Assembly (NCBI GenBank): GCA_964016885.1
Contig: OZ024740.1
Span: 424,886,001 to 424,950,000 of the forward strand
Origin: Eledone cirrhosa
Lineage: Eukaryota
Direction of reading: 5' to 3'
DNA length: 64,000 nucleotides
Made by a program: the position numbers and the translations under genes. Of the stretch, positions 2,401 to 60,880 are shown in pieces. The notes beneath the pieces were generated by a model. It saw nothing but the letters and a program-made list of their open reading frames with translations. It had not been told where the DNA came from and did not search any database. The stretch's first letter is position 1. Each line of letters opens with the position of its first letter.

Positions 2401-2960
2401 GGCCACTCCCATCGCCTCGTCAACAACAACAACAGATATATATATATATATATATATATATATATATATATATATATAACCAAAGTTTAATATGGTTCGT
2501 TGATTAATCAACGAATACAATTTTACAATAGATTAGAGGCACTCGACAAGGGATTTTCCTGGAGTATTTAATATTATTCAAAATGTTAATAAATGGAAAA
2601 TATTCTCATAATCAAAATATATATTTTATTATACATATTTCAAAGGTACAATGGTGTTTAAGTACGTTTTCATCAGACAAAATATAAAATTTGATATGTG
2701 ACATACCACTATGATAATATTTTCTATTTATTAACATTTTGAATAATATATATATATATACGCACGTGCTCAAGTATAGCTCTTTTTACAAAACGGTATT
2801 TTTTTCCATTTCAGGTAGACGCGCGCCATCATCCACAAAACGCCAGCACCAACAGTTTTGCAAGAGATGTCAACATGAATGGACCTATTATTTTTATCTA
2901 AATACATTTTTTCCAATTCCACCCCACCCGTCCCCTCAATCTATTTTATTTCTCATTCTT

Positions 2961-2996
2961 TCTTCTGATGAAGGACTGGCGTCCGAAACGTCAAGA
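2961..2996 (+). ncRNA. Minimal type I hammerhead ribozyme, family A (element about 2760-3082)
   Basis: tctt-CTGATGA-a-ggac-tggc-gtcc-GAAA-c-GTC-aaga: stem I tctt/aaga, stem II ggac/gtcc, GUC cleavage triplet. Confidence 0.8.
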
Positions 2997-3431
2997 CCCT
3001 CTTCCTGCTATATCAAGCATTAACCTAATATATACCTTCCATATACCGTACCCATTGGGTTGTTATTTCTGTTTACCTTTTACACACACACACACACACA
3101 CACACATATATATATATATATATATATATATATATATATAGAGGGCGTTAACCCCCCGGTGTTTGCATAGCTACGGCTTCATAAAACCATATTCCCCAGA
3201 GGGCGTTCGCCCCCCCCCCCCGGTTTTTGCATAGCTACGGCTTCCTAAAACCGTATTTCTTTGGCGATACGAAATATTTATACATATTCTATAAAGCTAT
3301 GCTTGCAGCGAAATCCTATTTCTTTTATATATATATATATATATATATATATATATATATATATATAGGAACAAGTATGACCCCGACGGCAGAGCTCAAG
3401 CCGTTTCGACGGCTAATTCTGGACGCTCAGG

Positions 3432-3480
3432 GCTTCCTGATGATTTCTCACGAATGAAACAGTTCTAGCCCTGTAGAAGC
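3432..3480 (+). ncRNA. Type I hammerhead ribozyme, family B
   Basis: gcttc-CTGATGA-t-ttc-tcac-gaa-t-GAAA-cag-ttctagcc-ct-GTA-gaagc: all three stems close and the triplet is GUA. Confidence 0.8.
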
Positions 3481-3559
3481 TCTTCTATATTAAAATATAT
3501 ATATATATATTACAAAATAAGAGGAGGCATGTTCTGGTGTAAATCCGTGAAAGGTTTAT

Positions 3560-56139: not shown

Positions 56140-58975
56140 TGTTCATATATTGTCAAAGTTCTTTCGTCACACATTATGTGACCTCTTCAGTCACTGGGGA
56201 TTCTTTTCTTTGTTTTTGAGCCTCTCCTTTGTTCTGTCCTACGCCATCTTGTTTTTGTGTGTGTTGTGTGCTTAGTTTGCGCATGTGTTATATCCGGGTG
56301 TCTGTGTGTTTATACTTGTTTATTTATTTGTTTATTTACATGTTACTGGTTGGTTGTTTGTTCTATGTGTGTGTTTTCATTTTGTCCTTAATTGTAAGTT
56401 GTGATGTTGCTGTTCCATTCATGTTTTCTATTTAATTTTGGTTGGAGTTCATTTATGTTTATTGCCTCTGTGATTTGTCTAAACATTGCGTCTTTTCTGT
56501 GTGTAGATTCTATTTTTATTTCTGTTCTCTAATTAACCCTTATGTTCTATTTTAGCATGTTGGTGGAGTACAGATGATTCTTTATTATCTTGAAACTCTC
56601 GCCGGTGTTCATTTATCGGTTCCCCTATACTACGAGCTGTCTCACCTATGTACACTATATTCTTATCTCTACATTGTCCTTCAGTACAACTTATGCTATA
56701 TACTACATTTCTAGTTTTACAGTTAATATGGCGGCTTAATTTACAGATTATACATTTCTTATCTATACAGGGAGGTCTTTGAAAAGGATATGTATTGCTA
56801 ATAAGTGTTTTTATGGAGGTACCTGGTCTTTCTACTATCTTAATATTGAGTTTATGCTTATCTAGGGCGCTTCTAAATTTGTAAGCTAATTTACCTCTAG
56901 GGGTTGTATCGATGAACATTACACTCTGGTATTTATTGCTATCATACTATGAGTTTATTCTATTAACCTTATTCCTAGTTCTTTCTATTCTATTCCAAAA
57001 TTTGCTCATATACAAGGGGTAGGTCCCATTTGTATCATTATTTACCATTTTTTCCCATTTGGTTCTGGCTCCTCTATATACTCTGATTTTATCTCTATGA
57101 TTGTAACCAGAGAACTGCATACGGTGGATGAAGTGTTGTATGTGTCTCTCTAGTTCATTGGGATTGCACATGCGGGACACGTTTCTCATCACCCGTACCA
57201 AATCCACAATTAGTATATTGATTTTGGTATGGTCCGAAATAGCTGAGTTTCGGTGGATTAGATATTTGGAAGTCATGGATTTGGCATAATGGGAATGGAG
57301 GATTTGTTTTTTGTTATTAATGGTATCTAACCAGAGCTCTGTGTCTAGTACAGGTAATCGATGGTTGGGGTGTTTGCTTGGGTAGTCTATAGTAACTCTA
57401 ATACTCTGGTGGATGGAGTTAGCTATTTGCTGGATGTTTTCCATTGTGTTTTTCTCTAATTCCTGACTGTTCTCTAGTGGGGGTGTTTTTACTACGATGT
57501 TTATATCATCAACGTAGCGGGAGTACATTATCAGGGTTAAGAGGTTGCTGTCTTCTAATTGTTCTTTAAGTTTAAGTTTAAGTCTATTGTCCCACCATAC
57601 CATGAATAGGTTAGCTATGTCACCTGCAATGCTAACACCAATGGCTGCTCCCTCCTCTTGGGCATATGTTTTTCTATTAAATTTGAACATATGTTCCTTA
57701 AGGGTTAATTTTATACTGGCCCCCACCGCATGTGCAATCATTTTCTTTCCTTCATCGTGGTTTTCGAGGGTCCATATGGCTCTGGTCCACCCGTTCCATC
57801 TATCTGTGTGGGTTTTCTTGGCCATTGAGGTAATGGTAGGTGGTCTGCCTCTTACTGGTCTTGTAGGGCACAGGTTGCTAAGGTCATATGTATCTATATA
57901 ATTATTACTATAGGTAAGTTTAAGTAGGAGTCCCAGCTCACTGGTATCAATCCCACGGAATACAACATTGCTCTCACTGATCATTTCTCCACACCAAAAT
58001 CCACGTCAATAGATGGATATAAGGACACAACATCCATACTATCTATTATGCAGTTTGTTAGGTCCCTAGATAGGTTACTCTCGCTGATTCTGCTGAGGAG
58101 GTCCTACGTGCTGTCACATATATCTGGGGACATTTCAATGATGGGGCGTATGATCAGGGAGAGGAAGTAGGAAAGTCTGTAGTTACTAGCAATGTTAGCT
58201 CCACAGACTGGCTGTTTTGGTGGTCCTGTGACAGGGTCACTGCTCGTTTTGTGGTCTTTTCGAAGCCTATACAACGCGGGCACGTCATTGTTCCAGGCCA
58301 GGAAGGTTGTTGGCATTCCTTTCGTTGGGATGCATTATATTTGTCCACATCACCATATGAGCATTGAGGTTTTTTTCCTATCCTCATGCTCTTGTGGTGT
58401 TACTTCTCTTGTGGTAGTGATGTGGGGTTGCATTGCCTGGATGTAGTTTAACAGACTGTCAATCGACATTCTGCCAGACTTGTCTGTTGGAAAGCATGCA
58501 CTCTCTCCATTACGCGAGCGCTGCATGAGCTTACGCAAGCCATTTGTAGATTTTTCTCCCAGTTGCTGGGCCTCCATTCTATTTTGCTTCTTGCTATACT
58601 GCTCTATAATATTTCTAAGTTTAGATCTAGCTATACTAAATTGTGCTTCTGTTTGTTCATCGACCTGCGACGGCAATTGCGTGCGTTTGTTAAAAGCTAA
58701 AGTCGTGGCGTGGACTCGTCGTAGGTCGAAGGACATATCGGAAGGATTATAAAAAGTAGAGTTCCGGGCTGCTGCTTTCTGTGTAATATTGCTATTGTTA
58801 TTGTTAGTTGTGTTGTTTCTATTTCTATTTCCACCAAGAGCCTGTTTGTCTTTCGTCTCTCCTTTGGGCATCGTTTGGCTTATGTCAGACACTGTGATCC
58901 CTGATTGACCAGCAGTTCTATTGGTAGGGATCGAAACTTTCCAGGTCAATCTCAATGGCCGATGACCATGGAGTT
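56140..58975 (-). pseudogene. Penelope-like retroelement (possibly Naiad-type), near full length, disrupted
   Basis: PTDKSGR, LRKDHK..PVCGA, QEEGAAIG, SRYVDD, LPVLD, then CIDKKCIIC...NVVYSISC...YIGET; premature TAG at 56947-56949 (frame continues YDSNKYQSVMFID); frameshifts; ends LNRKHEW near 56420; hammerhead-like motif 3' of the ORF. Confidence 0.85.
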
Positions 58976-60390
58976 CTGTGTCCTTCGTTTCTATATTTAT
59001 TTTAAAAAAAATGTTTATTCAAGGTTTCCCCTTAAAAAATTATTTTTCGTTTAGGATTGTTTTCGTTCGTTGTCTTGTCTATATATATATATATGTACAT
59101 ACACACACACGCATATATATATATATATATATATATATATATATATATATATATATATATATATATATATATATGTGTGTGTATGTGTGTGTATGTACAC
59201 AGAGGGGAAAGAGACCAGAGGGAGTGAAGGAGACGTCACACACACACTACACTCACACACATATATAACTATATAACTTCGTACATCTATGTATATATAT
59301 ATATATATATATATATATATATGTGTGTGTGTGTGTGTGTGTGTGTGTGTGTGTGTACACATATATACATCAGCATTAACATAAAGCCAATCAATCTTAG
59401 AAGACATCAAAGAGAAGAGAGTGCCGCTCTAAGACGGGATTCCAAATTTCACAGGATATAAATGAAATCAAAATACCATATCTGAAATAGCAGCATTTCT
59501 GCCACCCAGTTTTACACCCCCATCAGTGTTGCTTGCAAGACTCTATCTCTAGCTGTACCACCCTTAATCATAATCTTTTCTATCTTCATAACACCATTAA
59601 AACTCTTTGTTCTTTATAGGGTTGCGATAGCTAGTTGTATAACCTAACACTTGCTAATAATGTTCCAGCCATGACTATCCCGCTTTTACCTTGTTTCAAA
59701 CACAATGTCTCCTTCGTTCCTTGTTAAGACAAAAATGACTGTGTGTGATTTGAATGAAATCTCGCTGGTATTTCTAGTAGATCAGGCAGTTACCTCAAAA
59801 GGCTCATTACCTCTTGAGGACAGGCACAGCAGGTGATGAGGGATTAATCGTTGAATCAATGCGGCAAAATCTATCGTTAATCTTGGTCTGGAGACAGGGT
59901 TAAAATGGTTTCAAATTAAAGGACTCCACTTGAAGTAGGAAGGAACTGTTGAAGGCAGATTAGGTTTACTAACGAATAAAGTGCATTCAATCCGATGATC
60001 TATTGCACAGTTTCTGTGGCCCAGTTTCGTTCACAAGGTTCAGCTCGACACAGATATATTATATATATATATATATATATATATATATATATATAAGTAG
60101 TTACACAACAGTTAGTTCAGCATACCGAGAACAATTGTTTCACCTTAGCGGTGGTGAACTAACTGTTGTGTAACCACTTCTACCTAACTCGTCCCATGGA
60201 CTGAGTGCTCTGCCACTACGAATATTACCTTCCAGTGTCCTACCTCTCTCTCTCTTCTCTCTCTCTCTCCATCTCTCTCTATCTGTCTGTCTATCTCTCT
60301 CTCTCTCTCTATATATATATATATATATAAAATAAAAATGCCGTAGACATTACCATACAATTCAATACAATATGAGAGAACATAATAATA

Positions 60391-60436
60391 GTACCACTGA
60401 TGATGTTGCAGATGTGCAACGAAAGAACTTTGATAG
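60391..60436 (+). ncRNA. Type I hammerhead, family I
   Basis: tacca-CTGATGA-t-gttgca-gatg-tgcaac-GAAA-gaa-CTT-tgata; stem I has one mismatch. Confidence 0.65.
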
Positions 60437-60639
60437 ACTATATATATATATTTATATCTGTATTTTTAACCATTGGTCAGTCAATAATAAACATCGATTG
60501 CCAAATAAATTAACTGTGGAGATATAAAAGAATCAGAAGCGAAAACCAACCAAACAGTGAGTGTGTTCTGTTATTATTTCTGGCAATATTATTACAACAA
60601 TATGATCCTCCCCAAGTATAACAATATATATATTTATCA

Positions 60640-60880
60640 CATGTATAGCTCTATATACAAAACGTTTTTTTCCATTTCAGATAGAGGCGCTCCATCATCC
60701 ACTTTTCTAAAAAAGTTTATTATACACAAAACGCCAGCATCAACAGTTTTCCAAGAGATAGCCACATGAATGGACCTATTATTTTTATCTAAAAATTTGT
60801 TTTCGGATTTCGCCCTGCCCATCCGATCTTCCTAATTTCTCATTGTTTCTTCTGATGAAGGAGTAGCGTCCGAAACGCTC
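60640..60880 (+). mobile_element. Third family A copy, truncated at the hammerhead
   Basis: Aligns with 2775-2990; tctt-CTGATGA-aggag-tagc-gtcc-GAAA-cg, then homology ends. Confidence 0.7.

Follow-up and report, generated by a model that had tools for sequence, protein, structure and literature searches.

The window examined here, 64,000 nucleotides of the Eledone cirrhosa genome (assembly GCA_964016885.1, contig OZ024740.1, positions 424,886,001 to 424,950,000, forward strand), raises the question of why so many sequences resembling hammerhead ribozymes lie between its (TA)n microsatellite tracts, and whether they belong to independent mobile elements or to larger ones. A preliminary description had proposed a dense population of unrelated, non-autonomous ribozyme retroelements that are mobilised by Penelope-like elements (PLEs) and targeted to (TA)n. 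Our results support much of this, namely minimal type I hammerheads of the PLE kind, in many families and at high density, with PLE-type insertion into (TA)n, and suggest a different view of the elements themselves. We consider it probable that about 25 PLE families are involved, some of them 3′ ends of protein-coding elements and others retrozymes without an open reading frame (ORF), and that Penelope-type enzymes placed them in TA repeats, a single RNA giving two copies set back to back.

Using a type I descriptor that accepted one additional nucleotide following A9, tolerated a mismatched pair where stem II begins and admitted the U3-A8 core, we found 13 intact hammerheads in the window, compared with a mean of 0.15 (maximum 1) in 60 microsatellite-preserving shuffles; frequency against shuffled sequence was one of the checks that the preliminary description had named. 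A descriptor with a narrower stem III gave 12 against 0.16. An earlier strict descriptor had lost most sites because it allowed neither the extra nucleotide nor a U-U at stem II, and in an Rfam search at E values up to 1 the best 150 of 291 matches were microsatellite hairpins, with no hammerhead family among these 150. Hammerhead-like sequence is present at all 19 positions where a motif had been cited, with cores about 4-70 nt away; ten of these sites are intact and nine are damaged copies of real families (Table 1). Three intact motifs on the minus strand (2676, 7881 and 43471) had not been cited, nor had the variant core of PLE1, one of two PLEs in the window. The 19 sites fall into ten families, for which we coined letters: G (four sites), A (three), C, D, E and F (two each), and B, H, I and J. 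There are thus many separate families, but not 19 islands, since four of the sites form one array of 310-nt units with an inverted arm. To call the families unrelated is too strong, because C agrees with PLE1 in core type and stem III, I agrees with J in stem III, and the body of G is common to a sister unit bearing a different hammerhead. The core given as CUGANGA is UUGAAAA at 7962 and 43548, which is the published U3-A8 covariant, and the short palindromic stem III is replaced at 3432 by a 4-bp stem III with an 8-nt loop; the palindrome is perfect in 26 of 66 motifs from the genome sample described below with a stem I of at least 4 bp, and many others have a G-U pair or a central mismatch.

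The mode of insertion can be read from the ends of the copies. We sampled 80 evenly spaced 10-kb stretches (800 kb) from the 14 first contigs of the 3.0-Gb genome, in which the narrower descriptor gave 69 motifs (bootstrap 45-95) and 49 of the 80 stretches had none. A tract of (TA)6 or longer lies within 300 nt downstream in 49 of the 69, against a locus-matched expectation of 0.34 (p = 4e-10), and within 300 nt upstream in 26 (expectation again 0.34, p = 0.30), so that the statement that the motifs live in (TA)n holds for their 3′ side but not upstream. In every family examined the 3′ ends on (TA)n are fixed at two positions, a short one on an internal AT run and a long one 26-110 nt beyond it. 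Distances from core to TA are bimodal in C, D, I, M and others (156 versus 195 in PLE1), and most young insertions have one short-end and one long-end arm. For family G we examined 39 loci, which are the best matches to the window's own variant and not a random draw. Two head-to-head arms are present in 32 of the 39 insertions, and 30 of those 32 pair a short end (near unit position 139, in the internal AT run) with a long end (near 165); of the remaining two, one is interrupted by a gap in the assembly and the other ends irregularly. Six of the seven one-armed copies have the short end. Either G arm may be the longer (the short-end arm in 12 of 29), which rules out for this family that one arm arose by snap-back copying of the other; symmetric joints could still form in that way. 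At G unit position 131 a C-to-T change is seen repeatedly, and solely in the last unit of short arms; its place inside the AT run fits the target TA as an annealed primer supplying those bases. The same allele occurs in both arms in all nine close pairs of PLE1 and in 17 of 21 pairs of C (0.54 expected; three of the four differences are single changes), and in one G insertion a 308-nt variant is found in all 12 listed units of both arms, its neighbour 1.8 kb away having 310 nt. An inverted 5′ copy, a tail at one end and a microsatellite bias, the marks of insertion by PLEs with an endonuclease (EN+), were all found. No empty site was found for 29 G insertions.

We propose that the GIY-YIG endonuclease would nick both strands of the self-complementary (TA)n target and that the reverse transcriptase (RT) would prime on both target ends, the short arm arising where target TA anneals to the internal AU run of the RNA, after which the two cDNAs would be joined at their 5′ ends. 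For many insertions of coding PLEs the template may be a linear transcript that starts at an initiator in the pseudo-long terminal repeat (pseudo-LTR), with the ribozyme uncut; for retrozymes it may be a long multimer, or a circle that forms when dimers cleave themselves and the product is ligated.

If the ribozyme made the 5′ end of the template, the arms should begin at the cleavage site. None of 71 G arms starts within 10 nt of it, and the G starts have no strong hotspot (at most 6 per 6-nt window). Symmetric joints of family C were counted at three places: there are 1,113 in the stretch 40-45 nt upstream of the core, 10 at the cleavage site itself, and 12 at an intermediate control site. 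Ribozyme cleavage is thereby ruled out as what fixes the 5′ end of copies in G and C. Of 58 C copies with an intact core, 23 stop 39-45 nt upstream, unpaired arms included; six of the loci had been picked for short spacing. Among the first 100 PLE1 motifs listed, 13 of 28 head-to-head pairs lie 110-122 apart, with differing letters at the joint. Families B, N and M have family-specific joint clusters upstream of the cleavage site and D has none; apparent N and B offsets downstream of it were produced by repeats in the flanks. The hotspots of B, C, N and PLE1 fall on sites like YYANWYY (background 0.01 per base), the initiator consensus. The joints suggest that protein-coding elements were likely copied from RNA that the ribozyme had not cut. 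The Penelope element of Drosophila is transcribed from an internal promoter, which lies in the pseudo-LTR and includes an initiator (PMC2377424).

An alternative keeps the same elements and denies that the hotspot is a transcription start, making it instead an RT stall, a processing site or a self-copying palindromic mini-element. The PLE1 hotspot does overlap a 4-nt palindrome, a few joint spellings recur in C, and the site also resembles a splice acceptor, an intron of Drosophila Penelope ending at helix I (PMC4209133). We nevertheless regard this as unlikely, though to be taken seriously: joint letters vary between loci, arms without a partner also stop there, the short and long ends differ, and four families have an initiator-like site there. 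It is also conceivable that the flanking (TA)n was no pre-existing target and was written from the internal AU run by a telomerase-like RT. TA tracts are, however, of similar length at short and long ends (median 21 versus 16 nt, p = 0.77, 29 insertions), and the (TA)n bias has already been described as targeting (PMC8557442), so that synthesis of the tracts seems improbable despite the position of the short end on an AT run, the correlation of motif number with TA-tract number (rho 0.58) and the relationship of PLE RTs to telomerase (PMC8557442).

Whether the motifs mark independent elements depends on the family. The two PLEs that had been noticed in the window are real: PLE1 has a PF01541 GIY-YIG match on 41166-42260, PLE2 has a weak RVT_1 match, below cut-off, on 56950-58002, and a CX4CXXC Cys-rich linker precedes GIY-YIG in both. 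This linker was the one trait seen that bears on membership of the Neptune or Nematis clade, and a homologue search yielded no named reference sequences. The hammerhead sits in the terminal part of an RT/GIY-YIG element in A, B, C, I, J, PLE1 and part of M, and not in D, E or G. Family I is the 3′ untranslated region (UTR) of PLE2, with the ORF about 200 nt upstream in 17 of 25 copies. In A a PLE ORF lies 420-620 nt upstream at five loci (two of 25 copies in one tally), in J at two loci and in B at one of 12, a GIY-YIG sequence being about 930 nt upstream in locus L299; a PLE1-like endonuclease lies 1.0-1.4 kb upstream in two of 35 C copies (a third match was the neighbouring PLE2 and was left out of the count), and one subfamily of M has a PLE2-related ORF upstream. 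No recurring short period was found in A, B, C, I and J, which are therefore not ORF-less tandem units, and we read all five as truncated 3′ ends of protein-coding PLEs. The preliminary description had itself allowed that motifs mapping to PLE pseudo-LTRs would be debris, and these five families answer to that, since some of their copies are preceded by a PLE ORF in the same orientation. Many identical copies of PLE1 exist in which a 784-amino-acid (aa) frame is intact. A tandem PLE1 at L238:6799-8163 has a unit of about 4.7 kb, its long end continuing straight into an open frame of 455 aa, which overlaps the beginning of the 784-aa RT/endonuclease frame.

Other families lack such a connection. 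The 310-nt unit of G has no ORF, is at least 99% identical between copies and occurs in arrays of 1-19 units with a hammerhead in each; the D unit is 420-424 nt, likewise ORF-less, with an array of 16 + 5 units in L236. No PLE ORF lies upstream in 40 G copies or 37 D copies, and GC content is 34% in G and 38% in D. The E unit, about 475 nt, runs back into its own start and is slightly longer than the 150-450 bp range of retrozymes; only one or two units were seen together, and no upstream ORF was seen. D and G are best interpreted as independent ORF-less tandem retrozymes, and E is probably one as well. By cited site, eight of the 19 are coding-PLE ends, eight are retrozymes, and three (F and H) were assigned to neither kind. 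The non-autonomous character first proposed is therefore retained for D, G and probably E and given up for A, B, C, I and J. That all families should be independent non-autonomous elements is very improbable: most copies are short and non-coding, as that would predict, but the short ones are 5′ truncations of families, part of M included, that run upstream into PLE ORFs. The opposite extreme, in which coding PLEs left every motif behind as solo pseudo-LTR debris and the arrays expanded once they were inserted, is if anything less credible. Half of the cited families are coding-PLE ends, and some substitutions recur along arrays in a way that indicates block duplication after insertion; yet the G and D units lack an ORF and run back into themselves, and dozens of unlinked loci hold multi-unit arrays that are nearly identical and have fixed 3′ ends.

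G has a tandem sister with a unit of about 316 nt (L108:5784-7386, L102, L088, L147/L148, L153). The two have both 3′ end sites in common, as well as 65-76% of the unit body, and in L108 the sister has a different hammerhead with a U3-A8 core. The stem II of G resembles that of B. The sister and this likeness suggest that the ribozyme module may be swappable between units. Family N in L070 has a U3-A8 core with long stems II and III, its joints clustering inside stem II. Minisatellite arrays of 65 bp (up to about 5 kb) at L283:1050-1570 and C21:7564992-7570128 correspond to the 5′ half of the family F hammerhead, with GAAA only in the last unit.

That pairing is kept while stems differ was examined as covariation in homology-selected copies, with slid partner positions as controls. 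In M, 94% of positions are paired and there are 31 double-change cells against at most 7 for slid partners; the values are 96%, 11 and at most 5 in D and 88%, 6 and at most 3 in E, and in F double changes also exceed the slid controls. Compensatory changes are clear between related families (C and PLE1, I and J). The claim stands for these comparisons and fails within A, I/J and C, where covariation is not above slid controls, B being ambiguous.

This last result is one of several that weigh against our interpretation. Single motifs fold no better than shuffles (z from +0.15 to -1.8), although poor folding of isolated motifs is expected because such forms are thought to need dimers (PMC4209133; PMC6765202). 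The ORF links of A, B, C and J rest on 1-5 loci each, and among the loci examined we did not find a coding partner of G or D. Many C and PLE1 copies extend past the hotspot, and the hotspots of F and M have no clear initiator match. Sharing of alleles between arms could be explained by later gene conversion. In the 308-nt insertion one substitution is found in a single unit of either arm, a pattern more readily explained by gene conversion or a multimeric template than by one monomer circle. Finally, we infer the start site, the circles and the cleavage from DNA alone.

The window is denser in motifs than the genome sample by a factor of about 2.4 and is not unique. The sample gave 77 matches against 2.6 in 12 shuffles, six of the 77 being AT-rich satellite. 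The estimated density of about 55-120 per Mb corresponds very roughly to 200,000 motifs in the genome (range about 150,000-350,000). Pooling 253 distinct matches gave 31 clusters, of which about 25 are plausible families. Pattern searches of the whole genome found 10,256 exact copies of the 37-nt motif of family C, 6,085 of the PLE1 motif and 5,504 of the G core, with none for each reversed control. Chance matches in AT-rich repeats, to which the six satellite matches would point, can practically be dismissed as the general explanation, given a 30- to 90-fold excess over shuffles, families that recur and these exact copies. Published counts, obtained with other descriptors, are about 2,000 in Schistosoma, 4,000 in coelacanth and 9,000 in Xenopus (PMC4209133), and more than 6,000 in a coral, about 5,000 in a mussel and 126,247 in axolotl (PMC7229834); giant squid has 235 by Rfam (PMC6962438). 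In sequencing run X1 a single-copy stretch is covered evenly at about 10-fold, indicating genomic DNA, perhaps from the same source as the window. Runs X2, X3 and X6, under three other organism codes, each gave one 340-nt G contig at depth 10-26; contamination and sharing are indistinguishable here and these runs were not used, X2 showing no coverage of the single-copy stretch. A phage collection gave no match to family G.

Table 1. Elements and other features of the window (positions are those of the 64,000-nt stretch; core positions on the minus strand are marked (-))
Feature	Position	Strand	Remarks
Family M	2478..2745	-	intact core 2676, not cited in the preliminary description
Family A, putative truncated 3′ end of coding PLE	2760..3080	+	intact core 2965
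Family B, putative short 3′ end of coding PLE	3425..3500	+	intact core 3437, 4-bp stem III
Family C, second two-armed insertion	7711..8071		intact cores 7881 (-) and 7965 (+)
Family D, second insertion, with inverted arm	17236..17822		intact core 17581
Family E relative, two head-to-head arms	20029..20527		decayed cores 20169 (-) and 20294 (+)
Family A copy	20577..20779	-	damaged core 20682, one stem II mismatch
Family F, two decayed copies	22578..23500	+	outer limits approximate; damaged cores 22797 and 23310
Family G	26817..28155		plus arm about 3.1 units (27366 decayed; 27676 and 27986 intact), inverted arm with intact core 27014 (-), (TA)n on both sides
PLE1, 5′-truncated copy of young coding PLE	39939..42180	-	RT, Cys linker, GIY-YIG; 3′ UTR of ~1.2 kb
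PLE1 hammerhead-like motif	40106..40136	-	U3-A8, GCAA in place of GAAA (A13C)
Family C, two head-to-head arms of putative coding-PLE 3′ end	43358..43724		intact U3-A8 cores 43471 (-) and 43552 (+), joint at upstream hotspot (about 43510)
Family H, decayed copy	44798..44990	+	damaged core 44903
Family D unit	51308..51770	+	intact core 51464
Family E unit	51830..52262	-	intact core 51979, long stem II
PLE2, broken coding PLE	55929..58843	-	3′ UTR with family I hammerhead, core 56190, stem I damaged here
Family J, putative 3′ end of PLE2-related element	60328..60640	+	damaged core 60397, weak stem I
Family A copy	60640..60877	+	damaged core 60852, broken after GAAA
Further decayed or truncated PLE-type hammerhead families (K, O, L, N)	3812-3975, 19340-19600, 19676-19940, 37392-37597, 43742-43856, 44599-44797, 60096-60245		
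Tandem array	9900-11490		unit ~47 nt
Tandem array	12040-12970		unit 54 nt
Tandem array	47280-50200		short irregular unit
L1/Tx1-type long interspersed element (LINE)	29853-33919	-	apurinic/apyrimidinic endonuclease, RT, zf-RVT, upstream ORF
L1/Tx1-type LINE fragment	38210-39540	+	
L1/Tx1-type LINE fragment	42172-43200	+	adjoins truncated 5′ end of PLE1 head-to-head
Repeat like a short interspersed element	45204-45400		about 19 matches in the window; 143 matches in 48 of the 80 sampled stretches
LINE 3′ part	61286-62263	+	zf-RVT; beside (TACA)n-rich sequence; also carries what we take, by its motif, to be a restriction-like endonuclease

The 54-nt tandem array was considered as a hammerhead and rejected, CTGAAGA being present and GAAA absent.

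The variant core of PLE1 deserves separate comment. GCAA stands in place of GAAA in 98 of the first 100 PLE1 copies listed, so the canonical G12-A13-A14 is not what these copies carry, and A13 belongs to the hammerhead consensus core (PMC3088659). The motif has the same core type and stem III as that of C, with compensatory changes in stems I and II. Either it would be dispensable in an active family or A13C would be tolerated. A literature search for a hammerhead with A13C found no paper, the list of PLE hammerhead variants of Lunse et al. 2017 being outside its reach. We advance only tentatively, as a possibility that could well prove wrong, the fuller proposal that coding PLEs integrate from linear transcripts with an uncut hammerhead, that an active family thrives with U3-A8 plus A13C, and that only the ORF-less retrozymes cleave to circles.

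The elements are of known, published kinds, and the families are new examples of them. Cervera and de la Pena 2014 described many minimal-hammerhead families per genome, mostly as single motifs from truncated PLEs, together with opposite-strand pairs 100-700 bp apart and the U3-A8 variant (PMC4209133). The Eledone motifs are like these metazoan PLE hammerheads in family number, truncation, opposite-strand pairs, palindromic stem III, U3-A8 and the extra nucleotide between 9 and 10.1; they differ in that PLE1 adds A13C to U3-A8, and in number, our estimate of about 200,000 having been made with another descriptor than the about 2,000-9,000 reported (PMC4209133). The covered parts of that paper contain no mapping of joints. 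Animal retrozymes were defined, and a PLE origin was proposed for them, by Cervera and de la Pena 2020 (PMC7229834) and by Li, Clavereau and Pollet 2026 (10.64898/2026.07.22.740005). G (310 nt) and D (~422 nt) resemble these non-LTR retrozymes as ORF-less tandems of low GC content with a type I hammerhead per unit, and a U-U at the base of stem II occurs here as in HHR_Amex2 of axolotl (PMC7229834; 10.64898/2026.07.22.740005). In contrast, the hammerheads of G and D are minimal rather than canonical, their insertions into (TA)n are two-armed and of PLE type, and they are known here only as DNA. The covered passages of PMC7229834 do not mention cephalopods. Craig et al. 2021 described the insertion anatomy of EN+ PLEs and their (TA)n bias (PMC8557442), and the 5′ truncation, partial tandems, inverted 5′ copy, one-end tail and microsatellite bias seen here agree with it, as does the Cys-rich linker before GIY-YIG in PLE1 and PLE2. 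The tail measures 26-28 nt in G, 39 in PLE1 and about 55-110 in others, against 30-40 described; that paper attributes it to endonuclease resolution, whereas our data suggest two priming points on one RNA. Permuted hammerheads are the subject of PMC10085705. Among the papers listed by our literature searches there was none on octopod PLE hammerheads or retrozymes, though the supplements of PMC4209133 and PMC8557442 may list such families, and the main text of a repeat annotation of Octopus vulgaris contains neither 'hammerhead' nor 'ribozyme' (PMC13282606). What this analysis adds is the census of families, the 5′ hotspot that precedes the ribozyme, and the altered core carried by an active PLE.

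The role of the hammerhead in PLEs, called unclear in PMC8557442, and the formation of tandem and inverted insertions are stated there as open questions. The Eledone genome offers thousands of young copies with readable ends, which have two priming points, a fixed 5′ stop in coding families and none in retrozymes. PLE1, with its intact 784-aa frame and many identical copies, is a candidate for an in vitro system of PLE retrotransposition. If coding PLEs are indeed copied from an uncut template, the hammerhead would serve the parasites of PLEs more than the PLEs themselves, in a genome that would hold the densest ribozyme population yet recorded.

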